Source: Terriglobia bacterium
GTDB taxonomy: Bacteria > Acidobacteriota > Terriglobia > UBA7540
NCBI GenBank assembly: GCA_049519635.1
Contig: JBEKQO010000002.1
Location: forward strand, 6,106-70,105
Length of the DNA: 64,000 nt
Direction: 5' to 3'
Shown: positions 11,088-23,629 of the stretch, piece by piece
How the letters are laid out: each line of letters opens with the position of its first letter
Position numbering within the stretch: position 1 is the first letter of the stretch
The notes under the pieces: generated by a model
What the model saw: the letters and a program-made list of their open reading frames with translations, nothing else
Told to the model about the DNA's origin: nothing
The model's database searches: none
Made by a program: the position numbers and the translations under genes

Positions 11088-12432
11088 GGCCAGCATCCTG
11101 ATCGTGGACGATGAAAACGTTGTCCGGGACTCGCTGGGGAAATGGTTCGAGGAAGAAGGGTACAGTGTGGACACGGCCAATAGCGCGCGCGAGGCACTGC
11201 TGAAGCTGCCACGCCAGCGTTGGGACCTGGCGCTGCTGGACATCAAGATGCCCGGCATGGACGGCCTCGAGCTGCACCGCAAGATCCGCGAGGTCGATCC
11301 CGACATCATCGTCATCATCATGACCGGCTACGCTGCCGTGGATACCGCGGTACAAGCGCTCAAGGATGGGGCCTACGACTACATCATGAAGCCCTTCGAC
11401 CCCGATGACCTGGCCCACGTTGTCGCCAAAGCCCTCGAACATCGCCGCACGCGGGAGGAAAATCTGCGCTTACGCGAGAGCCTGGAGGAAGCTCAGGCAG
11501 TCGAGTTGGTGGGCCAGGGGCAGCCCATGCAGCGGGTGCTCGAAAGCATTCGCACCGTGGCGCCCAACGACACCACGGTGCTCATCCACGGTGAAAGCGG
11601 AACCGGCAAGGAGCTCGTGGCGCGCGCCATCCACAATTTGAGCCCCCGCCGCTTTATGCCTCTGGTCACCATCCACTGCGGAGCGCTGACAGAAACGCTG
11701 CTGGAAAGCGAGCTCTTCGGGCATGAGAAGGGCGCCTTCACCGGCGCGCAGTACCGCAAAAAGGGCAAGTTCGAAGTCGCCGAGGGGGGCACGGTCTTTC
11801 TCGATGAGATTGCCGACATCAGCCTGAAAACCCAAACCGACTTGCTGCGCGTCCTCCAGGAGAAGGAGATCACGCGGGTAGGCGGCAACCAGACGATCAA
11901 GGTGGATTTTCGTGCCATCGCCGCCACCAACAAGGAATTGACGACGCTGGTCAAAGCGGGGACCTTCCGCCCCGATCTTTACTACCGCCTGGATGTTTTC
12001 GGCATCACGCTGCCGCCGCTGCGCGAGCGCAAAGAGGACATCCCGCTGCTCGTCGATCATTTCCTGCGCAAATATTCGCGTGCCATGAACAAGCATTTCA
12101 CCAGCATCAGCCGCGCGTCGCTCGACGTCCTGATGAACTACCAATGGCCGGGCAATGTTCGGGAATTGGAGAACGCCATTGAACGCGCCATGGTGATCGG
12201 GCATCAGCCGGAAATTCAGGCCTCGGATTTCCCCCTCCAGGTCTCGAAGCCGCCCGCACCGGAGGGCAGCATGGCCCTGGAAGACGTGGAGCGCGGGCAC
12301 ATCCAGCGCGTGCTCGAAGGTTGTGACTGGAACCAGACGCGCGCCGCCAAGGCGCTCGGCATTGATCGCGTCACGCTCTACAATAAGATTAAGAAATACG
12401 GATTCCGGAAGGCGGACGCAGCCGCGCAATGA
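11077..12432 (+). CDS. Sigma-54-dependent response regulator (REC - AAA+ - Fis-type HTH; NtrC family)
   Basis: REC (DDENVVRDSL...D...K), Walker A 'GESGTGKE', the 'GAFTGA' sigma-54 contact loop, and a C-terminal HTH 'NQTRAAKALGIDRVTLYNKIKKYG'. SD AGGAG at 11066. Confidence 0.95.
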   Translation: MNSKASILIVDDENVVRDSLGKWFEEEGYSVDTANSAREALLKLPRQRWDLALLDIKMPGMDGLELHRKIREVDPDIIVIIMTGYAAVDTAVQALKDGAYDYIMKPFDPDDLAHVVAKALEHRRTREENLRLRESLEEAQAVELVGQGQPMQRVLESIRTVAPNDTTVLIHGESGTGKELVARAIHNLSPRRFMPLVTIHCGALTETLLESELFGHEKGAFTGAQYRKKGKFEVAEGGTVFLDEIADISLKTQTDLLRVLQEKEITRVGGNQTIKVDFRAIAATNKELTTLVKAGTFRPDLYYRLDVFGITLPPLRERKEDIPLLVDHFLRKYSRAMNKHFTSISRASLDVLMNYQWPGNVRELENAIERAMVIGHQPEIQASDFPLQVSKPPAPEGSMALEDVERGHIQRVLEGCDWNQTRAAKALGIDRVTLYNKIKKYGFRKADAAAQ

Positions 12433-12959
12433 GAATCCTCTCCCTAATGCCGGTTGGACGAGTTGACCGCGCCCTGCTGGAGCCTCTCGCCGAGGACCTG
12501 ACGCGGTGCCTGCGCGTGGCTTGTTCCATTCAACCCGACGGCCTGGAGGCGGAATTCGCCTTCAATCCCCTGCGCCGGCAGTATCACTCCACCGAGATCC
12601 TCAAGAAGATTCTCCAGAGGCCCGCGAGCGAAGCCTGGAAGGTATTGGGGGTGACGGAAATGGACCTCTACATCCCCGTGCTCACCTTTGTATTCGGGGA
12701 AGCACAACTAGCGGATGGCGGAGCGGTGGTCTCTGCCCATCGCCTGCACCAGGAGTTCTACGGCATGCCCACTGACCCCGGACTCCTCCACGAACGCCTG
12801 CTGAAAGAGTCCCTCCACGAACTGGGCCACACCTACGGCCTGCGCCATTGCCCGGATTATTCCTGCGTGATGAGCTCCTCCAACGCCGTCGAACGTATCG
12901 ACCTGAAGCGCGCCGAGTTCTGCCCCCAATGCGCCCAACTCGTAGGGTGCCCGACGTAG
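12429..12959 (+). CDS. Archaemetzincin-like zinc metallopeptidase (M54-like)
   Basis: Motif HELGHTYGLRHCPDYSCVM...CPQC matches the archaemetzincin signature HEXXHXXGX3CX4CXM...CXXC. The start overlaps the regulator stop (ATGA at 12429-12432). Confidence 0.85.
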   Translation: MRILSLMPVGRVDRALLEPLAEDLTRCLRVACSIQPDGLEAEFAFNPLRRQYHSTEILKKILQRPASEAWKVLGVTEMDLYIPVLTFVFGEAQLADGGAVVSAHRLHQEFYGMPTDPGLLHERLLKESLHELGHTYGLRHCPDYSCVMSSSNAVERIDLKRAEFCPQCAQLVGCPT

Positions 12960-13325
12960 AAGCAAGCGTAGCGCGGGAACCCCGCTGGTCTCCGCGGAAA
13001 TCACGCCCTCATTCGGTGCGTCTCTTTTTTCTTCAAGTTCGATTCCAAAAAATCCCCGTCCAGCGCAAATCCGGGCGCGGACGACGGGCGAGTTCTTGCC
13101 GATGCCCCCCGCGAACACCAGCGTGTCCAGTCCGCCTAATGCCGCCGCAAATGCGCCGATCCCTTTCTTAACCTGGTAACAAAACAGCGCCACTGCTTCC
13201 GTTCCCGCCGGGCGGGCCAGTTCGCCCATCAGAAACGTCTATGACAGTCCGTCAAATCCGTATCGCCGAACCCCTGCGTTTCGTAGCGGCGCGGGAGCGG
13301 CAACATTTGGGCCACGCGCGGCAGG

Positions 13326-15622
<2,297 letters not shown>

Positions 15623-15623
<1 letters not shown>

Positions 15624-16027
15624 CAGGTGGTCTTCGGTCCTCCTTCTTCAGTTCGAGATTGATTTATCGCTGCCGGAGACGGGATCGACTTCCAGGGGCG
15701 CCACAACGCCTGCGCAATCCGGCGCACCCGCCCGGTTTGCAAGGAATCATCTTGGATGGGGGTCACGTTCTCGTCAACCACACCGACAGGAAGCGATTCC
15801 CGGCCGCTGAGGTTTTCCAGTTCCAGCGAGCCGTGGCGGTTCATAATCTTCGTAGCAATATCCACGTTTTCGTTCGAACCTGTGGCGAAGACTCGGACAC
15901 TTCCACGCCGCACTCCGTGGACGTAGGCTTCCGCCTCCGGTCCGGCTGCCCGGATCGTCCCGAGTTCCCGGTTCAGACTCACCTCGAAGTCAATGTTGGG
16001 GATGCCCATAGCCCCACTGTCCGGCAT
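15623..16027 (-). CDS. Hypothetical protein, translationally coupled to glgX
   Basis: Start taken at MPDSGAMGIPN (16027), because upstream codons of the 202-aa ORF run through a repeat arm. Its stop overlaps the glgX ATG (ATGA at 15621-15625). Confidence 0.45.
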
Positions 16028-16117
16028 GTCCAGCGGCTCACCTAGAATGCGGATGTCCTTCGAGGGCTGTCCTCGACCTGCCTTTTTGTCAGCGCCACAC
16101 CGGAGCGGGGATGGAGG

Positions 16118-16162
16118 GTGAAGCCCCGCCCTTCCAGAGTTGGGGTAAGAAATCCGGGCTAA
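16118..16162. repeat. Solo arm of the family-A repeat
   Basis: GTGAAGCCCCGCCCTTCCAGAGTTGGGGTAAGAAATCCGGGCTAA matches the right arms of the composite elements. Confidence 0.6.
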
Positions 16163-16596
16163 ACCCACCCCCTGAATCCGCTCCGAACGGCCCATCTGAC
16201 TACGTTCCAGCGTTTTTGGTCGCGGGTACAACGTCTATCTCCTTTCCTTTCAATAACTCATCCGGTTTTAGGTGCAAGTGGTTTGTTTATCAGCAACATA
16301 GCCGAGCCCGGATTAGGTGGAGTCACAATTATTTCCCCAACTGGCCTATTTTCATCGGTATATATAAGATAATCGCGTAACTCCTTTATTTTCATCGAGT
16401 CATCCAGAGGGATCGAACCGGCCCCTTTGTTTTCAATGACCTTCCGGCTTTGAATGTAGAAATTTTTTTATTTTTGTGATTTCCAGGGTTCGCGCGTCAA
16501 GGTGGAAGACTTTCGTGGCGGGTAACTCGGCGCCAAACCTTCATCGCCCCCGTAGCTTATACTACTTGCCTCGTTTTGTCAAGTGGAAAAAAGTCC

Positions 16597-16965
16597 CGCG
16601 CTGACTTCGTGCAACTCATCAAACTGTACGCCGCGCCCGCCGAAGGCGAACACCGGTACTCACCTTCCGAGGTAGTTTCAACGGAGGTGGTGCCAGTCAT
16701 CGGACGCCCCGCCCCCGAGAAGATTTGCACCAGCCACGTTGAAAGATAAAACCTCACCATGCGAATGCAGATTCGCAGATTCACCCGCCTGACTAACGCT
16801 TTCAGTAAGAAGTGGGAAAACCACTACGCGGCGCTCGCTCTCTGTTTCGCCTATTACAATTTCGTGAGAATCCACAGTTCAATCCGCGTCACTCCCGCTA
16901 TGGAAGCCGGACTTACTGATCACGTGTGGACTTTGGGAGAATTGCTCGGCAAGATTGGGCAGTAA
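16597..16965 (+). mobile_element. IS1-like transposase C-terminal remnant with an in-frame stop
   Basis: '...[68 protein letters not shown]'. TAA at 16747-16749 interrupts the frame. There is no N-terminal half and no terminal inverted repeats. Confidence 0.75.
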
Positions 16966-17012
16966 ATAAAGGGTCGATTCGCAGTTAGACCTTTATCTTA
17001 ATCTCAAATTTC

Positions 17013-17040
17013 GTAGGTTTCATCGAGTAGGTTTCATCGA
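17013..17040 (+). repeat. Perfect tandem duplication of a 14-bp unit
   Basis: GTAGGTTTCATCGA occurs twice back to back. The related TTTCATCGAGT is at 16390-16400. Confidence 0.8.
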
Positions 17041-17257
17041 GTTTGCATTCGGAGGCGCTCTATGTTAGCGTGTGGGTGCTACCTAAGGGAAACCCGTTCA
17101 TCAAAACTCGGATTTCCCTTTTTGATTATTCGATCGTTTCCGGCATTAACCCGTAAGCATTCTTGGCGGAGGGTTTCGGGTTAGGCCAAATCGCACGCTG
17201 ACGCACTCCCCTAAAAGGAGTGTCGCGAGGTTGTGTGCCAAAGTCAACTGATTTCAG

Positions 17258-17749
17258 ATGCCAATCCTGTTGAGCGACGAAGAAATCGAGGAACTAGTCC
17301 TCGAACCAAAGTTGATGCCAGATGGACTTTGTACTCCCAAGATGGCCGTCAGAAACAGTCATCGTCACAAGTCCTACGAAATCCCATGCGACTCGGGTCA
17401 CTTATTCGTGGTGAAGATCAGGGAATCCTGCGTCAATCCGATGAACTTCTCTGTCATTCTCGGGAATATGCTTCCAGGCGTGTATACGGTCTTCCGCCTC
17501 AAACGCTACAATGGCAAATCTCACTTCCATTCAAATCCTTTGGAGAACGAGAAGTTTTACGACTTTCACGTTCACCAGGCGACCGCCAGATATCAAAGGC
17601 CAGGGTTCAACGAAGATCACTATGCAGTCCCGACACAGCGTTTTTGCAATCTCCAAACTGCGCTCGGGTGTTTAGTAGACGAATGCGGATTTCCACCGCC
17701 GTTTAAGGGAACTCCGCTTTTCCCGCTCGATGATGACCGAAACTTATGA
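17258..17749 (+). CDS. Hypothetical protein, first gene of an overlapping two-gene cassette
   Basis: 163-aa ORF in visibly lower-GC DNA. A stop lies immediately upstream in frame. His-rich segment 'KSHFHSNPLENEKFYDFHVHQATARY'. I recognise no family. No obvious SD. Confidence 0.6.
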   Translation: MPILLSDEEIEELVLEPKLMPDGLCTPKMAVRNSHRHKSYEIPCDSGHLFVVKIRESCVNPMNFSVILGNMLPGVYTVFRLKRYNGKSHFHSNPLENEKFYDFHVHQATARYQRPGFNEDHYAVPTQRFCNLQTALGCLVDECGFPPPFKGTPLFPLDDDRNL

Positions 17750-18519
17750 ATGTTGATTCAATCAAAGATCAATTTAAGAACCGTGTGTGCGAACAGATCG
17801 AGATTAGGCCGGAAGGCCTCAACCGATTTTTGGTCGTGACACCATTTCGATTTGGGGACGGCGACCATTTCGGAATCGTTTTGAGAAAAGAAGGGGATCA
17901 ATGGGTGCTCAGTGATGAGGCTAGCACGCTAATGCACCTATCATATGAACTGGACGAACAGGATTTTTCTGGAAATCGCGCGAGCATCATAGAAGGATCG
18001 CTTGCCGGTTTTTCAGTCGAGAACCGCGAGGGAGAATTTGTGATTCCGGTTAGCGAAGGCCGCTTCGGAGACGCGCTCTTTAATTTTGTTCAGGCGCTTA
18101 CGAAAGTCTCGGACGTTTCTTTTCTGTCGCGCGAGCGCGTCCGGTCTACGTTCTTAGAGGATTTCAGAGCCTTCCTCCGGTCCCAAGTCTCCGAGGATAG
18201 ATTGATGTTTGACTGGCGTCACGAGCGCGACCCGGAAGGAAGATACCAAGTCGATGCCAGAATAAATCATATGAAGCGCCCGCTTCTCGTTTATGCTCTG
18301 CCGGGCGAAGACAAGGTTAACGTAGCAACAATATCGCTTCACGTGTTTGAGAAGTGGGGACTCAAATTTCAATCCATTGGAGTGTTTGAGGACCAAACAT
18401 CTATATCTGGCAACGTCCTTGCCAGATTCACCGATATCTGCGAAAAGACCTATTCCAACCTTGAGGGAAACAAGGAACGTATAGCTGATTACCTCAAGGA
18501 TAAACTTGGCTCACACTAG
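17746..18519 (+). CDS. Hypothetical protein resembling DUF1828/DUF1829-type proteins
   Basis: ATGA start/stop overlap at 17746-17749. The N-terminal 'VVTPFRFGDGDHFGIVLRKEGDQWVLSDEASTLMHL' resembles the DUF1828 pattern as I recall it. This needs an HMM check. Confidence 0.65.
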   Translation: MNVDSIKDQFKNRVCEQIEIRPEGLNRFLVVTPFRFGDGDHFGIVLRKEGDQWVLSDEASTLMHLSYELDEQDFSGNRASIIEGSLAGFSVENREGEFVIPVSEGRFGDALFNFVQALTKVSDVSFLSRERVRSTFLEDFRAFLRSQVSEDRLMFDWRHERDPEGRYQVDARINHMKRPLLVYALPGEDKVNVATISLHVFEKWGLKFQSIGVFEDQTSISGNVLARFTDICEKTYSNLEGNKERIADYLKDKLGSH

Positions 18520-18577
18520 ACCTCCTTCAGATTAAGTTTTAATCATCAACGCAACTTTCCCCCACTACCGGACCCGG

Positions 18578-18668
18578 GGTAGTGTCCTAATTTGCGACGT
18601 AGCGCCGGGCTTTAGCCCGGCATGTGCCGCCCTAAAGGGCGGCGCTACATTCAAAATAGGACACTACC
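18578..18668. repeat. 91-bp three-stem palindromic element (family H, copy 1)
   Basis: Outer stem GGTAGTGTCCTAATTTG.../...CAAAATAGGACACTACC encloses two hairpins (GCCGGGCTTTAGCCCGGC and GCCGCCCTAAAGGGCGGC). It is flanked by the direct repeat CACTACCGGACCCGG (18563-18577 and 18662-18676). Confidence 0.8.
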
Positions 18669-18735
18669 GGACCCGGAGCTACGTGGACGCGCAGAGGCGC
18701 TCTGTGGTAGACTACGGACTGCCGGAGAGAGCGTA

Positions 18736-19401
18736 ATGGAAAATCTAGACTACTACGAATTCCTCCAAATCAGCCCCAAAGCCGAGCCCGAAACAATCCA
18801 TCGCGTGTATCGATTTCTGGCGGGCCGCCTTCACCCGGACAACCCGGGCACCGGCGATGCGGAAAAGTTCCTCCTGTTGAAGCAAGCCTTTGACGTGTTG
18901 TCCGATCCCGAACGCCGCGCCGAATACGATGCGACCTACAAAAAGGAAGCGCCCCAGCCTATTCCCCTATCCACTTCCATTGATTTTATGGATAACATCG
19001 ATGGCGAGTTGAACCGGCGGTTGGCGGTGCTGGCGCTGCTCTATATTCAGCGCCGCACAAACCCCTTCAAGCCGGAAGTTTCCCTGGGCGAGGTTGAAGC
19101 TCGCATGGGGTTTCCCCGCGATTATTTGTACTTCACCACGTGGTATCTCTCGAACAAAAAATACATCACTCAGGCGGACAACTCCGATTTCACACTCACG
19201 GCGCTGGGCGTGGACTTCGTGGAATCGAATCGCGCGAATGTCCCGGTCCTGAATAGATTGCTGACCAGCGGCGCGGGGCCCTCCAACAGAGATGAAGTGG
19301 CGGCGAACAAGGCCTTGATCCCTCCCCGCACGCCTCTCATTGTGCCTGCAGGTAACGGCGCATCCGAGCGGACCGGCGCAAACGGGGATAATGAGGATTG
19401 A
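18736..19401 (+). CDS. J-domain protein (DnaJ-like N-terminus, unrelated C-terminal domain)
   Basis: 'DYYEFLQISPKAEPETIHRVYRFLAGRLHPDNPGTGD...FLLLKQAFDVLSDPERRAEYD' with the HPD motif. Start at ATG 18736 (GGAGAGA upstream), because the 18622 extension is translated repeat. Confidence 0.8.
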   Translation: MENLDYYEFLQISPKAEPETIHRVYRFLAGRLHPDNPGTGDAEKFLLLKQAFDVLSDPERRAEYDATYKKEAPQPIPLSTSIDFMDNIDGELNRRLAVLALLYIQRRTNPFKPEVSLGEVEARMGFPRDYLYFTTWYLSNKKYITQADNSDFTLTALGVDFVESNRANVPVLNRLLTSGAGPSNRDEVAANKALIPPRTPLIVPAGNGASERTGANGDNED

Positions 19402-19410
19402 TGGATCACC

Positions 19411-19624
19411 TAGTCCGGATTTCTCATCACGACTCCGGAAGGGCGGGGCTTTAGCCCCGCCGTTGCAAAGCTATCCTGATTATTTCCAAGTCCCGCACCC
19501 CGCGCAGCTTGCAGCCGCAAGCTGCGCGGGGTGCGGGACGAATTGTGTGTGGGAGCCGCGAATTCGGCGGGGCTGAAGCCCCGCCCTTCCGGCAGCGTCC
19601 AACCTTGGTGAGAAGTCCGGACTA
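19411..19624. repeat. Family-A composite palindromic element with an E-type core
   Basis: Left arm TAGTCCGGATTTCTCATCACGACTCCGGAAGGGCGGGGCTTTAGCCCCGCC. A 50-bp perfect palindrome lies at 19490-19539. The right arm is the inverted copy, ending ...GGTGAGAAGTCCGGACTA. Confidence 0.9.
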
Positions 19625-19692
19625 ACCTTTTGCGCTTTCAGTCTCATCCGATTTTTGGACAGCACGGGAACGTCTTCCGTGGCCGGAAGCCT

Positions 19693-21078
19693 TCACTGCT
19701 TCCTCAAATCCTCGGGCTCATCCGTCAGTCGGCCCAGCATTTCGTAGATCCGGACCAGGGCCTGATTCAGCATGCGCTCGCCGGCTCCCACGGCGACGTA
19801 GGTGTCGGAGTCGGCGGCGCCATAACCGCCCTCCGAGGCCGCTCGGATGGTGGGGAAATAATCATAATAGCCGTTCGCGTAGCCGACAAAGAAAGCGCTG
19901 GGTACCGGGCAGCGCCCCCGCCAGTCGATTTGAAAATCCACGAAGGGCTCCCCGGGCATGCCTATCATAGCGATCTTCTTGTTCAGCAGAACCGTCGTCA
20001 CATCCAGCGCCAGCTCGCGCCGAGGCGATTCGCTGTTCAGCAGGTCGGCGTGGTCCTCATAGATTTTTGGGCCGTACTTCGCAAGCATTCCTTGCCGAAA
20101 TTTTTGGGCGTCCCAGCGCACGGGGAACGTCAGGTAGTCTTCCGTAAACTGCAGGCTGGGCTCCTGCACGGGTTCGGTGTGGATAGTTTTCGCCACCCGG
20201 GCGGCTTCGGCGCCAAGCTGCTCGCCGGTCCAGTCGCGCTTCTTGACAGCGTCATCAACCAGGGGCGTGGTGGCGTAGTAAGGATTGATGTCGCCGTCCC
20301 CGCCCTGCAAGAAGAAACACAGCGGCTGTCCACCCACGGGGTCGCCCACAGATTGCTCGGTGGTCCGGGCCATGACGCCGACAAAATCCGCCGAGTACTC
20401 AAGATTATCAGGCCCAAACACTACGGGGTGGCAGGCGTAGTTCACCAGGATGGCCAGGGGCTTGCCGCCCACCGTGTCGACGCGCAGGACCGACACGGTG
20501 GGATCGAGCGGTGAGGTCGGTACCTTGTCGGGATTCTGCCAGAACATGGCGACCGTGCCGTCAGCGTTGACGCGACGCCGGTTGTAGCCGATGTCAACTG
20601 CGCCGAAGCCCGTCCCCACCTGCGCTTCCACCTCGCGCTGGCAAGCTTCCCCCACGCCCTTGGCGATCTTGTCGAGGTCGGCAGTCTCCCAGGCCGGGGT
20701 CTGGTTGGCGGGGTATTCGTCCAGGATATTGGGCCCGGAATGAGTGTGCGAGGCGGTGGTGAGAAGATACGAAATCCCGCTTTTTTGGGCCAGTTGATTT
20801 CGCAGGCGGGTAAGAGAGGCCGGCCCGAACGTCCGGCCCAGATCGAGCGTGATTAAGGCCAGACGCTTTCCTTGCACCTCAATAACGAGGATGCGTGCGT
20901 AAAGAGGGTCAAGCGTGCCGGTGGAGAGCTGGGTTCGATCGAAATAGCCGTACATGGGCAAGCCCGGCGGTGGAGTGATATCTACTTTCGCAACACCGGC
21001 CTTGAAGCCCGCTCCCCAGGCGAAGCCTGTGGCCGCCCAGAAAAACAGCGCCAACTCCAACGTGCGTTTTCGACGCAT
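19693..21078 (-). CDS. Neutral/alkaline non-lysosomal ceramidase-like hydrolase, secreted
   Basis: Signal peptide, then 'GVAKVDITPPPGLPMYGY...DPLYARILVIE...TASHTHSGP', typical of the neutral ceramidase N-terminal domain family. Confidence 0.75.
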   Translation of the reverse strand: MRRKRTLELALFFWAATGFAWGAGFKAGVAKVDITPPPGLPMYGYFDRTQLSTGTLDPLYARILVIEVQGKRLALITLDLGRTFGPASLTRLRNQLAQKSGISYLLTTASHTHSGPNILDEYPANQTPAWETADLDKIAKGVGEACQREVEAQVGTGFGAVDIGYNRRRVNADGTVAMFWQNPDKVPTSPLDPTVSVLRVDTVGGKPLAILVNYACHPVVFGPDNLEYSADFVGVMARTTEQSVGDPVGGQPLCFFLQGGDGDINPYYATTPLVDDAVKKRDWTGEQLGAEAARVAKTIHTEPVQEPSLQFTEDYLTFPVRWDAQKFRQGMLAKYGPKIYEDHADLLNSESPRRELALDVTTVLLNKKIAMIGMPGEPFVDFQIDWRGRCPVPSAFFVGYANGYYDYFPTIRAASEGGYGAADSDTYVAVGAGERMLNQALVRIYEMLGRLTDEPEDLRKQ

Positions 21079-21086
21079 AAGTCACC

Positions 21087-22037
21087 TCACTTCAGTTGCG
21101 CTTTCGCCACCGCGGCCACCTGGCCGAGCGTTCCAAACCACACTCCCGGCTTTGACTGCATGTAGGTCACCAGGCGGTCGAGCGCCGCTATTCGCGAGCG
21201 GTGCCCGGTCACGAATGGGTGCATCGTGAGCAGGAACAACGTGCCCTCCTCATACGCCTGGTCAAACTCACCCTTGTAGATCTCGTAAACGTCGCTGTCG
21301 CCCACGCGGTTGAATGCATTCGACCGCCCGTCGTAGCTGTAGTAAGCGTAGTCGTCGAGGATCCACTCAACCGGCAACTCAACGAGGCCCGTAGGTGTTC
21401 GGGCGGAGACAATTTCATAGGGACGGTCGTCGGCCATAAGGCTCGAATCATACACTAAGCCGAGGTCGCGGATGATGGCCAGTGTGTCGCCTGTGAAGTC
21501 CCAGGAGGGCGTGCGAATGCCTGCCGGCGGATAGCCCAGGCGTTGCGTCCACCATTGGAATGCCCGCGTCGTCAGTTCCCGCTCCTCGCCGGGCTTCAAG
21601 TTCGCGATGGGCTCGTGGATCCAACCGTGGATGCCGATTTCGTGTTTTAGCGGCGACTGCAGAATGGCATCGATAGCGTCCGGGTGAAGTTGGGCGTCCA
21701 CGGCGGGGATAAAGAACGTCAGCGGGACTCGGTGCTTCTCCGCCATCTGGAGAATGCGCGGCACGCCCACGCGTGGACCGTACTCTCCCCGTGAGAGCGG
21801 CTGCGGAGAGTAATTCCCCGAACGCAAGGGGCCCGATTCGGCGTCAAAGTCGAAGGAGAGCCCCACGGCCACACGCGCCCCCAGGGGCCATTTTTGAGGG
21901 GTCAGGTCACGCCCGGCGCGGACCTTCTCAACCAGTGCTTGAATCCGGGGAAAATCCCACTCCCAAACCGGAGTCTGAGTCTGTGCCAGCAAAGGGACAA
22001 CCCAAAATAGCACGCCAAGCACCGCTGCGATCCTCAT
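21087..22037 (-). CDS. Polysaccharide deacetylase (NodB-homology) family protein, secreted
   Basis: 'VAVGLSFDFDAES', 'HGWIHE' and 'LTMHPF' motifs. Start at MRIAAVLGVLFWVVPLLAQ (22037) with GGAGG upstream. Confidence 0.85.
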   Translation of the reverse strand: MRIAAVLGVLFWVVPLLAQTQTPVWEWDFPRIQALVEKVRAGRDLTPQKWPLGARVAVGLSFDFDAESGPLRSGNYSPQPLSRGEYGPRVGVPRILQMAEKHRVPLTFFIPAVDAQLHPDAIDAILQSPLKHEIGIHGWIHEPIANLKPGEERELTTRAFQWWTQRLGYPPAGIRTPSWDFTGDTLAIIRDLGLVYDSSLMADDRPYEIVSARTPTGLVELPVEWILDDYAYYSYDGRSNAFNRVGDSDVYEIYKGEFDQAYEEGTLFLLTMHPFVTGHRSRIAALDRLVTYMQSKPGVWFGTLGQVAAVAKAQLK

Positions 22038-22098
22038 ACCAACTTCCTCCCTCCAGGCTGCCCGCCCGGTTCTTGGGCTCTGCAATTCCCGGGGGGCT

Positions 22099-22312
22099 TA
22101 GCCCGGATTTCTCACCACCGGTCTGGAAGGGCGGGGCTTCAGCCCCGCCGGAATCGCGGCTCCAACCCTTTGTCCGTCCCGCGCCCCTCGCAGCTTGCAG
22201 CCGCAAGCTGCGAGGGGCGCGGGACACGGGAATAATCAGAAAGGCCCGCAAACGGCGGGGCTGAAGCCCCGCCCTTCCGGCTGCGTCCAGCCGTGGTGAG
22301 AAGTCCGGGCTA
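22099..22312. repeat. Family-A composite palindromic element with an E-type core
   Basis: Same architecture as 19411-19624. The 50-bp palindrome at 22176-22225 differs from the 19490 copy only at paired (compensated) positions. Confidence 0.9.
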
Positions 22313-22405
22313 AATGTCGTGTTACCAATCTGGGGTCCGTAGCCGTGGTGAAAAATCGCGGCATCCTGTTTCAAGGGGCCGGCGCGCGTATCATGGCCTC
22401 GTCCG

Positions 22406-23629
22406 TTATTCGGGAGGCTCAGCAGTTTGCGACTTCGAGATGCCGCCGGTGATTCCTTGGCGAATAGCCAGATTGACTTGATGCTGTTGATCATGGGCTT
22501 TCCGGTAGAGTGCGAGCTCCCTTTTGGCCTCTTCCTCACGCCCTAATCGGAGGTAGGCAAAGGACAATTGATAATGCGCCACGGGATCTGCTGGAGCGAG
22601 GCGCACGGCATTTTCCAGCGGCGCCACGGCTTCCGCTGCCCGGCCGGCAGAAATCAGCGACTTGCCCAGGCCGATGAGCGCATCGGAAAAATTGGGATCG
22701 ATTTTCACGGCGCGCGCAAAGTGCTCAATCGCCTCGTTCCATTGGCGGGTCGAGCGGGCCATCTCCCCAAGTTCATATTCTGACCCTGTATCGTTCGGAT
22801 TGATCTGCAATTCCTCCTCGAACTCCTTGTGCGCCGCGTCCGCCGTGACCGGGTCCATCTCGCCGGCTAACAGCAAGCGCCCAATGTGATAATGAGTCCC
22901 GGGCAAGCCGGGCGCCGCCTCCACGATCTTACGGTATTCGGCAATGGCCTCAGAATTCCTTCCTTGGATTTCCAGCGCATCCGCATCAACCTGCCGCGCT
23001 TGATAGGAACTCGGCGCAACGCGCAGCAGGCGTTGCGAGGTGAGAGTGGAGAGATCCGAAAAGACCCGTGTGCTGAGGTAGAGCACGTCCGGGTCATCGG
23101 GGAAATCCCGGTTCAGCCATTGGAGCCAGTTGGTGGTCTGGAAAGGCTCCGCGATCGTCATTGTGCACCGCGCACCATCGAGTCCCATGAAGCGCCTAAG
23201 CTGGGGATCGCCAACGGGCCCGTAGTCTTTCTGGAGAAGCGGCAGGGCCTCCTTGCACTCTCCGGTTTCCGCCAGACTGAGCGCCAGAAAGTAGCGGGCA
23301 AAAGCCAGCGAGGGTTTTAACTTCAGGGCTTGGCGGCAGGGAGCTATGGCATCTTTTGGTTGTCCGGCCCAGTAGTAGGACGTACCCAAGTTAGCTTGGA
23401 ACTCGGCCACGTCAGGAGCCAGCCGGGTGGCCTTCACAAGGTTTTGAATGGCAGTGGCGTAATCGCGTCTGCCCAACGCCTGGGTGGCCGCGGTAACGAG
23501 GTCCTCTAGTTCGGGAGGTACGGTGGCGGAAGGCGGAGTGGTCCTCTTTCGCGTGGGCGTCTGGGCGTTTGCCACCATTGGAGCCAGAAGTGCGGCCAGG
23601 AAGATGGTGGCGAGAATTCTTTCCCGCAT
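22406..23629 (-). CDS. Secreted TPR-repeat protein
   Basis: Start at MRERILATIFLAALLAPMVANAQ (signal peptide), followed by multiple TPR units (e.g. 'AIQNLVKATRLAPDVAEFQANLGTSYYWAGQ'). Confidence 0.8.
   Translation of the reverse strand: MRERILATIFLAALLAPMVANAQTPTRKRTTPPSATVPPELEDLVTAATQALGRRDYATAIQNLVKATRLAPDVAEFQANLGTSYYWAGQPKDAIAPCRQALKLKPSLAFARYFLALSLAETGECKEALPLLQKDYGPVGDPQLRRFMGLDGARCTMTIAEPFQTTNWLQWLNRDFPDDPDVLYLSTRVFSDLSTLTSQRLLRVAPSSYQARQVDADALEIQGRNSEAIAEYRKIVEAAPGLPGTHYHIGRLLLAGEMDPVTADAAHKEFEEELQINPNDTGSEYELGEMARSTRQWNEAIEHFARAVKIDPNFSDALIGLGKSLISAGRAAEAVAPLENAVRLAPADPVAHYQLSFAYLRLGREEEAKRELALYRKAHDQQHQVNLAIRQGITGGISKSQTAEPPE

Follow-up and report, generated by a model that had tools for sequence, protein, structure and literature searches.

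A divergent PDC-M24-type gene pair in a low-GC islet of a Terriglobia contig: a candidate anti-phage cassette

RexAB of phage lambda is a two-gene abortive-infection system encoded in the cI immunity operon, and the site immediately after cI, in the same direction, is one at which prophages carry lysogen-expressed genes such as rexAB. The anticodon nuclease PrrC is embedded in the EcoprrI Type Ic operon; RloC and BrxU are other restriction-embedded effectors. The subject of this report is a pair of overlapping open reading frames, ORF1 and ORF2, in a 64,000-nt stretch of DNA from a Terriglobia bacterium (assembly GCA_049519635.1, contig JBEKQO010000002.1, positions 6,106 to 70,105 of the forward strand). 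This whole stretch is referred to as the window, and coordinates are those of the window. The pair is related to one of 145 candidate cassettes named PDC ("phage defence candidate"), which were nominated for their embedding in BREX, DISARM or Type I restriction-modification systems and were treated as independent candidates (Payne et al., bioRxiv 10.1101/2024.01.29.577857). The candidate in question, PDC-M24, is found in the supplement of that study as cassette CAS_00098 with the composition FAM_00129>>FAM_00065. Judged by its profile matches, the window cassette is a divergent member of this catalogued family.

The assignment is most direct for ORF2. The protein matches the complete Pfam model DUF1828 (PF08861; 78.3 bits, E = 5.7e-22, residues 32-121, model positions 1-91 of 91) and passes the cut-off of 22 bits. 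Two PADLOC models of PDC-M24B (PDLC04539, 7.6e-21; PDLC04540, 8.1e-18) and the PHROG family phrog_5059 (3.2e-28) are matched as well. The search for homologues returned 1038 sequences at E ≤ 1e-3. All of the 45 diverse homologues that were compared match DUF1828 and both PDC-M24B models. A sequence-only reading of the window had likened ORF2 to DUF1828/DUF1829 proteins. The DUF1828 part of this likeness is confirmed. DUF1829 (PF08862), on the other hand, was rejected, as it matches neither ORF2 at E ≤ 1 nor any of the 45 homologues at E ≤ 0.1. In the defence literature DUF1829 occurs in one paper, which deals with a different protein (HipAD / DS-6B).

For ORF1, 33 close homologues with 42–64% identity were found. 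Of 1.84 billion searched, the ORF1 profile hits 1113 cluster representatives at E ≤ 1e-3, of which 678 remain at E ≤ 1e-10. Both ORFs are genuine genes that belong to large families. The statement that ORF1 has no nameable family is outdated, since the protein lies on the periphery of DUF6978. Among 46 members of the ORF1 family, 29 match DUF6978 at E ≤ 0.01, and the PDC-M24A models give 17 weak matches (best 3.5e-5). The ORF1 homologue of a viral contig (locus L090) is a full-length DUF6978 member that scores 68.5 bits against the ORF1 profile and 5e-5 against PDC-M24A, and its neighbour is a DUF1828 protein. The link of ORF1 to DUF6978 and PDC-M24A appears sound, although it runs through intermediates only. 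ORF1 also matches phrog_27326 (2.4e-23). For neither protein was a match found in NCBIfam. With ORF2 matching PDC-M24B and ORF1 a distant relative of PDC-M24A/DUF6978, the statement that no known system is evident can no longer be upheld. The window branch is a divergent subfamily that PADLOC would presumably not call complete.

ORF1 and ORF2 form an almost obligatory, co-diverging unit. The genes are adjacent, on the same strand, and overlap or lie a few nucleotides apart; in the window they are joined by the ATGA overlap described in the sequence-only reading. Two sets of loci were inspected. The first was selected by ORF2 and comprises 80 loci from species-representative genomes of Acidobacteriota, Chloroflexota/Dehalococcoidia, Cyanobacteria, Poribacteria, Acidimicrobiia, Gammaproteobacteria and one archaeon. 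An ORF1 homologue is located directly upstream on the same strand in about 70 of them. The second set was selected by ORF1 and comprises 80 metagenome loci, 73 of which have enough downstream DNA. ORF2 is present in all 73, so that co-conservation is found in both search directions. In total, the A-then-B order on one strand is seen in the window and in about 140 other loci. The pairwise-identity matrices of 118 distinct pairs correlate with r = 0.84, a value not reached in any of 999 Mantel permutations. ORF1 diverges somewhat faster than ORF2 (mean identity 0.50 and 0.56, respectively). Both are conserved genes under selection, and purifying selection is evident in the chromosomal copies.

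The pairing has exceptions. ORF1 is disrupted or displaced by insertion sequences (IS) or transposons in L013, L036, L076 and L078, and ORF2 stands alone in L043, L057 and L084. ORF1 without ORF2 occurs in 0 of 73 loci and ORF2 without intact ORF1 in about 10 of 80 (Fisher p = 0.0016; the comparison involves two different collections and should be read cautiously). A solitary ORF1 is thus never seen, whereas ORF2 can persist by itself; this suggests that ORF1 alone is harmful or useless. In an uncultured Acidobacteriaceae metagenome-assembled genome (MAG; L010, 5503-6786) the two homologues are fused in frame to one protein of 427 aa. If real, this fusion could serve as Rosetta-stone evidence of joint action; the MAG derives from long reads and an indel error is possible. 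In a Poribacteria MAG (L080, 1026-3441) no ORF1 accompanies the ORF2 homologue, whose N terminus bears a different extension of about 75 aa. A small nucleotidyltransferase-like gene precedes this homologue, and genes for an AAA-type ATPase and for Type I hsdR/YgjP follow. The whole may represent an alternative partner arrangement. N-terminally extended ORF1 homologues were considered as domain fusions and rejected, because the extensions resemble miscalled starts with low-complexity sequence. A domain common to ORF1 and ORF2 was also rejected (profile-profile comparison, probability 0.4%).

The unit is mobile, passing between phyla, phages and integrative islets, and is repeatedly placed where defence genes sit. 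The neighbours at the genome loci were clustered and scanned; counts of restriction and Hma neighbours are lower bounds obtained by tblastn with restriction and Hma proteins. The order hsdM-hsdS-[pair]-hsdR-YgjP is found in L062, L073 and L079, and Type I genes border the pair at a further six loci (L068, L076, L080, L081, L087 and L088). Within Hma systems (SNF2 helicase, the DUF1156 methylase HmaB and a DUF499 protein) the pair is present at eight genome loci (L024, L025, L029, L030, L045, L059, L060, L063) and five metagenome loci (L113, L126, L137, L166, L167). Other defence matches among the neighbours are PglX, type IIG enzymes, MADS components, AriA, AbiLi and HEC-01A. In the closer acidobacterial relatives, the pair adjoins an AIPR gene together with ISL3 and IS21 elements (L171) or an IS1595 transposase (L173), or lies in an islet with an integrase (L175-L178).

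Phages carry the pair as well. In the Pseudomonas phages 5399, phita81A and 5371 both genes are located directly downstream of cI in the same direction and overlap by 4 nt; in phage 5399 and two relatives the order is cI, a small ORF and the pair. On the viral contig L090 the pair lies between a CI-like repressor (helix-turn-helix and peptidase S24) and a serine integrase. Altogether, 3–4 of 50,697 sequenced phage records and two IMG/VR contigs contain the pair. A DUF1828 protein with 24.6% identity to ORF2 is encoded by Halorubrum virus Humcor1 (MW344765.1, 32601-33176), in which no match to ORF1 was detected, and a full pair is present in a Methanomassiliicoccales MAG (L085). The family is therefore not confined to bacteria but extends into the archaea.

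In 45 ORF2 sequences with identities down to 24%, P33, F34, D38, D40, D57 and T61 are invariant and H41 and E58 nearly so. D38, D40, D57 and T61 are the only invariant polar residues of the protein, and all of these as well as H41 and E58 belong to the DUF1828 domain. The structural model of ORF2 is of moderate confidence (predicted local distance difference test, pLDDT, 73; predicted template-modelling score, pTM, 0.48). The secondary structure of its C-terminal half (H136-147, E153-157, E169-173, E180-185, H188-203, E209-214) fits an alpha-beta-beta-beta-alpha-beta order. Almost all of the top Foldseek matches in the PDB are PD-(D/E)xK proteins, namely Can2, the R.BspD6I small subunit, Bax1, VC1899, Hjc and cap-snatching endonucleases. 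The strand formed by residues 180-185 lacks an acidic-x-Lys motif and E215 is variable (FEDQ, FKNQ, FQDK). The nuclease assignment of the C-terminal domain is weak.

The AlphaFold2 model of ORF1 has a pLDDT of 90.1 and a pTM of 0.83. It consists of an N-terminal helix, a four-stranded antiparallel meander, short His-bearing strands and C-terminal helices. The His-rich stretch remarked on in the sequence-only reading, KSHFHSNPLENEKFYDFHVHQATARY, corresponds to residues 87-112. In 46 family members of about 35–53% identity, K18, R55, R83, H91, N93, E96, H104, H106, T109, R111, Y112 and Q113 are invariant or nearly invariant. The His-rich stretch is therefore the conserved core of ORF1. No significant match was obtained with the model by Foldseek in the PDB (best E = 0.28, TM-score < 0.3) or in BFVD (best E = 0.028), and any fold assignment was rejected on these results. 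Four motif-based ideas were considered for ORF1 and rejected: a cupin (HxHx4E), a HIT or GalT protein (HxHxQ), a His-Me finger and a 2H phosphoesterase. They are a misfit in spacing or in conservation, H89 and position 107 being variable, and none of these folds was returned by Foldseek. Searches of ORF1, ORF2 and their family profiles against the sequences of solved structures gave nothing significant. Both models are globular, and hydrophobic segments were seen in neither protein.

The islet that harbours the pair differs in composition from its surroundings, as already noticed in the sequence-only reading. The GC content is 0.46–0.53 over 16200-18600 and 0.58–0.64 in the flanks on both sides; for the islet as a whole (16118-18620) it is 0.493 compared with 0.58 for the entire window. 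At third codon positions (GC3) the values are 0.57 for ORF1 and 0.53 for ORF2, those of the neighbouring genes being 0.67–0.76. The islet is flanked by an isoamylase/GlgX-type gene (13326-15623, minus strand) on one side and by a J-domain gene on the other. The left border is marked by the half copy of a palindromic repeat. The segment is also present on contigs from other samples. One of them, L005, matches the window only from 16118 rightwards and has other genes upstream, and its break falls exactly on this half copy. The low GC and GC3 together with an IS1 scar support a foreign origin of the islet.

Table. Features of the islet and its borders in the window.
Feature	Position	Strand	Basis
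Half copy of dispersed palindromic ~215-bp repeat	16116-16169		83–85% complementary to arms 19411-19456 and 22091-22144
IS1-family transposase pseudogene, C-terminal ~130 codons	16576-16965	+	tblastn; in-frame TAA 16747-16749
Perfect 14-bp tandem duplication, GTAGGTTTCATCGA x2	17013-17040		Read from sequence
ORF1, 163 aa, divergent DUF6978 / PDC-M24A-like, first cassette gene	17258-17749	+	Homologues, profiles
ORF2, 257 aa, DUF1828 (PDC-M24B family), putative restriction-endonuclease-like C-terminal domain, second cassette gene	17746-18519	+	Pfam, PADLOC, Foldseek
Palindromic hairpin between ORF2 and J-domain gene	18562-18680		Inverted repeat arms 18578-18594 and 18652-18668

The IS1 scar was recognized before as a transposase tail with an in-frame TAA, and this holds with a start about 20 nt earlier than given. 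Two transposase ORFs (16576-16749 and 16759-16965) share one frame, with the TAA between them. Their joined translation of 129 aa is 51% identical to genes annotated as "IS1 family transposase" over query residues 10-127 (E = 2e-29), and the alignment runs as a single piece across the TAA. The reading frame is not intact: apart from the internal TAA, the N-terminal part is missing. No Pfam or NCBIfam model matches this region, which by its translation is the tail of an IS1-family pseudogene. The tandem duplication next to it is exact, as was proposed; about 2e-4 perfect 14-bp tandems are expected by chance in 64 kb. Contig L001 (JGI Ga0645787_1006) retains both genes with 99.95% identity and lacks a segment of 490 bp (16586-17075) that includes the IS1 tail and the duplication, with a GTGG microhomology at the junction. 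Thus the IS1 scar is a neighbour of the cassette and not a part of it, and the sequence-only reading needs correction on this point.

L001 differs from the window in other respects. Compared over 11670-23000, its glgX region is 92.7% identical and split into many small ORFs, and deletions correspond to 15545-16119, 16586-17075, 19079-17 and 19620-19868. Two explanations come into question, strain divergence accompanied by decay of glgX or noise in the L001 assembly. Downstream of glgX in the window are two minus-strand ORFs (15623-16231, 128–202 aa; 16258-16395, 45 aa) that match no family and are called as genes on identical contigs. The shorter one may be a gene remnant at the islet edge.

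Downstream of ORF2, the hairpin has a predicted folding energy of -81.3 kcal/mol as RNA (z = -5.7), and its core resembles the dispersed repeat (family D6). It is possibly a transcript end or an element of the repetitive extragenic palindromic (REP) type. Full copies of the ~215-bp dispersed repeat are located at 19411-19626 and 22099-22314. This repeat contains GGCGGGGCTTNAGCCCCGCC cores together with an inner hairpin of 23 bp that is perfect; 6 copies of the core are found in the window, compared with none expected by chance. It looks like a REP element or a miniature inverted-repeat transposable element. An Rfam search over 15500-19800 gave only spurious microRNA matches to the palindromes. 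The longest ORF of the J-domain gene (18622-19401) starts inside the hairpin. On identical contigs, gene callers place the start at about 18736 (221 aa), and in the long version the Pfam DnaJ domain starts only at residue 43. Of the two starts, that at about 18736 is the more plausible.

The islet probably, though far from certainly, carries an autonomous PDC-M24-type cassette of two genes that was acquired horizontally and is directed against phages or mobile elements. The contextual evidence for a defence role is strong. In such a cassette ORF1 and ORF2 would act as a complex, with ORF2 as the module that acts on nucleic acids. D38, D40 and D57, together with H41, E58 and T61, may form a divalent-metal site in the DUF1828 domain. 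ORF1, which is presumably soluble, has no relative of solved fold and carries the conserved cluster H91/E96/H104/H106/R111/Y112, could provide a second catalytic or ligand-binding activity, or it could be a sensor of infection. Infection, or the disabling of a neighbouring restriction system, would release the complex, which would then damage phage or host nucleic acid. The release logic might be that of RexAB or PrrC. Either ORF1 or ORF2 may be the effector. A stronger version of this proposal is possible but doubtful. It describes a working anti-phage system with a mechanism unlike the characterised ones, in which ORF1 would be a new-fold, metal- or ligand-dependent enzyme or sensor. ORF1 would control, or be controlled by, ORF2, and the Asp cluster of ORF2 would be a new nucleic-acid-cleaving site on a degenerate restriction-endonuclease scaffold. 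The pair would act as an autonomous second line that is inserted in restriction operons and expressed from the prophage immunity region.

A number of observations weigh against a defensive function of the islet. The window copy is solitary, its neighbours glgX, J-domain protein and ceramidase are housekeeping genes, and homologues of restriction or Hma proteins are absent from the entire 64-kb window. A scan for promoter and terminator consensus sequences gave nothing above shuffled sequence. At many other loci the neighbours are ordinary metabolic genes, and the link with defence genes is guilt by association only. ORF1 matches no PADLOC model at E ≤ 1, those of PDC-M24A included. Against Pfam DUF6978 (PF22398) it reaches 16.7 bits (E = 0.0096, model positions 1-114 of 133), below the gathering cut-off of 29.6, which is passed by its relatives in L090 (40.8 bits) and P0302 (30.3 bits). 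By the Pfam rule, ORF1 is therefore a peripheral relative and not a member of DUF6978. For ORF2, the top Foldseek hits have probabilities of 0.98–0.99, but E-values range from 5e-3 to 6e-2 and TM-scores from 0.3 to 0.4, with a model pLDDT of 73. In its putative nuclease domain D162 and D170 are near-invariant, position 172 is R, H or Y, and there is no conserved (D/E)xK lysine. Literature searches on DUF1828, DUF6978, DUF1829 and PDC-M24 yielded incidental mentions that give no function, and none of the papers in the searched library names PDC-M24 in its main text. Papers retrieved with the term "PDC-M" are mostly unrelated. No experiments on PDC-M24 or on any DUF6978/DUF1828 pair were found in the literature. 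The sequence-only reading named housekeeping surroundings of homologues as a ground for refutation; the window copy has such surroundings, but homologues elsewhere clearly do not.

The sequence-only reading regarded the pair as a candidate toxin-antitoxin or defence module. Its core, a compact, translationally coupled and horizontally acquired pair, is well supported, also by the defence settings of relatives; no feature specific to toxin-antitoxin systems was detected. In an addiction module that stabilizes its carrier elements and operons, one protein (most likely ORF1) would be toxic, the other would neutralize it by direct binding, and phage protection would be secondary. The compact operon with its 4-nt overlap, the strong co-divergence of both genes and their transport as cargo of phages, integrase islets and IS-flanked islets are consistent with such a module. 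So is the asymmetric loss (ORF1 alone at 0 of 73 loci, ORF2 without intact ORF1 at about 10 of 80, where an IS or transposon interrupts ORF1 in several cases), although the two collections were selected via different genes and a sampling effect is possible. However, searches of Pfam, NCBIfam and PADLOC revealed no known toxin or antitoxin family in either protein, and DNA-binding domains of the helix-turn-helix, ribbon-helix-helix or AbrB type are absent from both. The two proteins exceed the usual size of a type II pair, and conservation is higher in the larger of them. Furthermore, what is typically embedded between hsdS and hsdR is defence cargo and not plasmid addiction modules. An addiction module is accordingly an unlikely explanation.

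That embedding leads to a different proposal, in which the pair would serve restriction-type systems (Type I, Hma) as an accessory or guard subunit and would work only together with them, for instance as a sensor of their inhibition or a modulator of restriction. The window copy would then be a functionless leftover. The repeated occurrence of the pair on the same strand inside operons (between hsdS and hsdR or among Hma genes) and the established precedent of PrrC in EcoprrI speak for this role. A restriction or Hma neighbour is, however, present in only about 20 of 80 genome loci (a lower bound). The presence in two unrelated host systems as well as in phage immunity regions argues for autonomy. 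In the window the pair is intact, contigs of several independent samples carry it in identical form, and restriction genes are absent from the 64 kb. Payne et al. treat embedded cassettes as independent candidates. Dependence on a restriction system is therefore improbable. Equally improbable is that the pair serves the biology of a phage or mobile element itself (lysogeny control, DNA processing or counter-defence) rather than host immunity, with the chromosomal copies as decaying cargo. The PHROG matches given above, the presence in three temperate phages of Pseudomonas, in two IMG/VR contigs and, with ORF2 only, in a Halorubrum virus, and the position next to repressor and integrase genes would fit. 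But the pair is rare in sequenced phages (3–4 of 50,697 records), common in the chromosomes of many phyla and under purifying selection there. The position downstream of cI is an established site of lysogen-expressed genes such as rexAB, and a counter-defence gene is not expected to be kept inside host restriction operons.

If the PDC-M24-type cassette is indeed defensive, an entry in a catalogue would become a widespread immune system. The ORF1 family comprises more than 1100 clusters at 50% identity and spans Acidobacteriota, Chloroflexota, Cyanobacteria, Poribacteria, Actinomycetota, Proteobacteria, an archaeon and temperate phages. A defensive role would also provide a first function for three "domain of unknown function" entities and for a fold without a solved relative. 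Because the PADLOC models miss the A component of the window branch, surveys of soil and marine genomes likely under-count the system. A tractable homologue in a Pseudomonas prophage, residues suited to mutagenesis and the hint that ORF1 depends on ORF2 offer experimental handles.

Among the known systems, PDC-M24 is the closest. The window cassette shares with it the number and order of the genes and the size of their products (A of about 150–165 aa, B of about 255 aa), and homologous pairs lie within Type I restriction-modification or Hma systems; it was through embedding that PDC-M24 came to be nominated. It differs in that its ORF1 matches no PDC-M24A model at E ≤ 1, in that it is not embedded in any system and in the distribution of its branch (Acidobacteriota, Chloroflexota, Cyanobacteria, Poribacteria and others). 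PDC-M24 is itself a candidate only, and membership carries no known mechanism. The ORF2 model best matches Can2 (8bao, 8q3z, 8q44), VC1899 (1xmx), the R.BspD6I small subunit (2p14) and Bax1. With the Can2/Card1/VC1899 group it shares a two-domain layout with an alpha/beta, nuclease-like C-terminal half. In contrast to these proteins, the DUF1828 domain is not a Rossmann-like CARF domain by the order of its secondary structure elements, the conserved (D/E)xK lysine is lacking, TM-scores are 0.3–0.4 and there is no match in the PDB at the sequence level. RexAB has neither sequence nor fold similarity to the pair, which contains no RexB-like membrane protein and is chromosomal rather than prophage-borne in most copies. 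Nevertheless, both are two-gene cassettes. The pair follows cI in the same direction in phage 5399 and related phages and lies between the CI-like repressor and the integrase in L090, a location from which prophages express genes for exclusion and defence in the lysogen. Unlike PrrC, the pair consists of two proteins without an ABC-ATPase or HEPN-like domain and also occurs without a restriction-modification neighbour. The location between hsdS and hsdR in a Type I operon, on the other hand, is PrrC-like and suggests a second-line or guard role.

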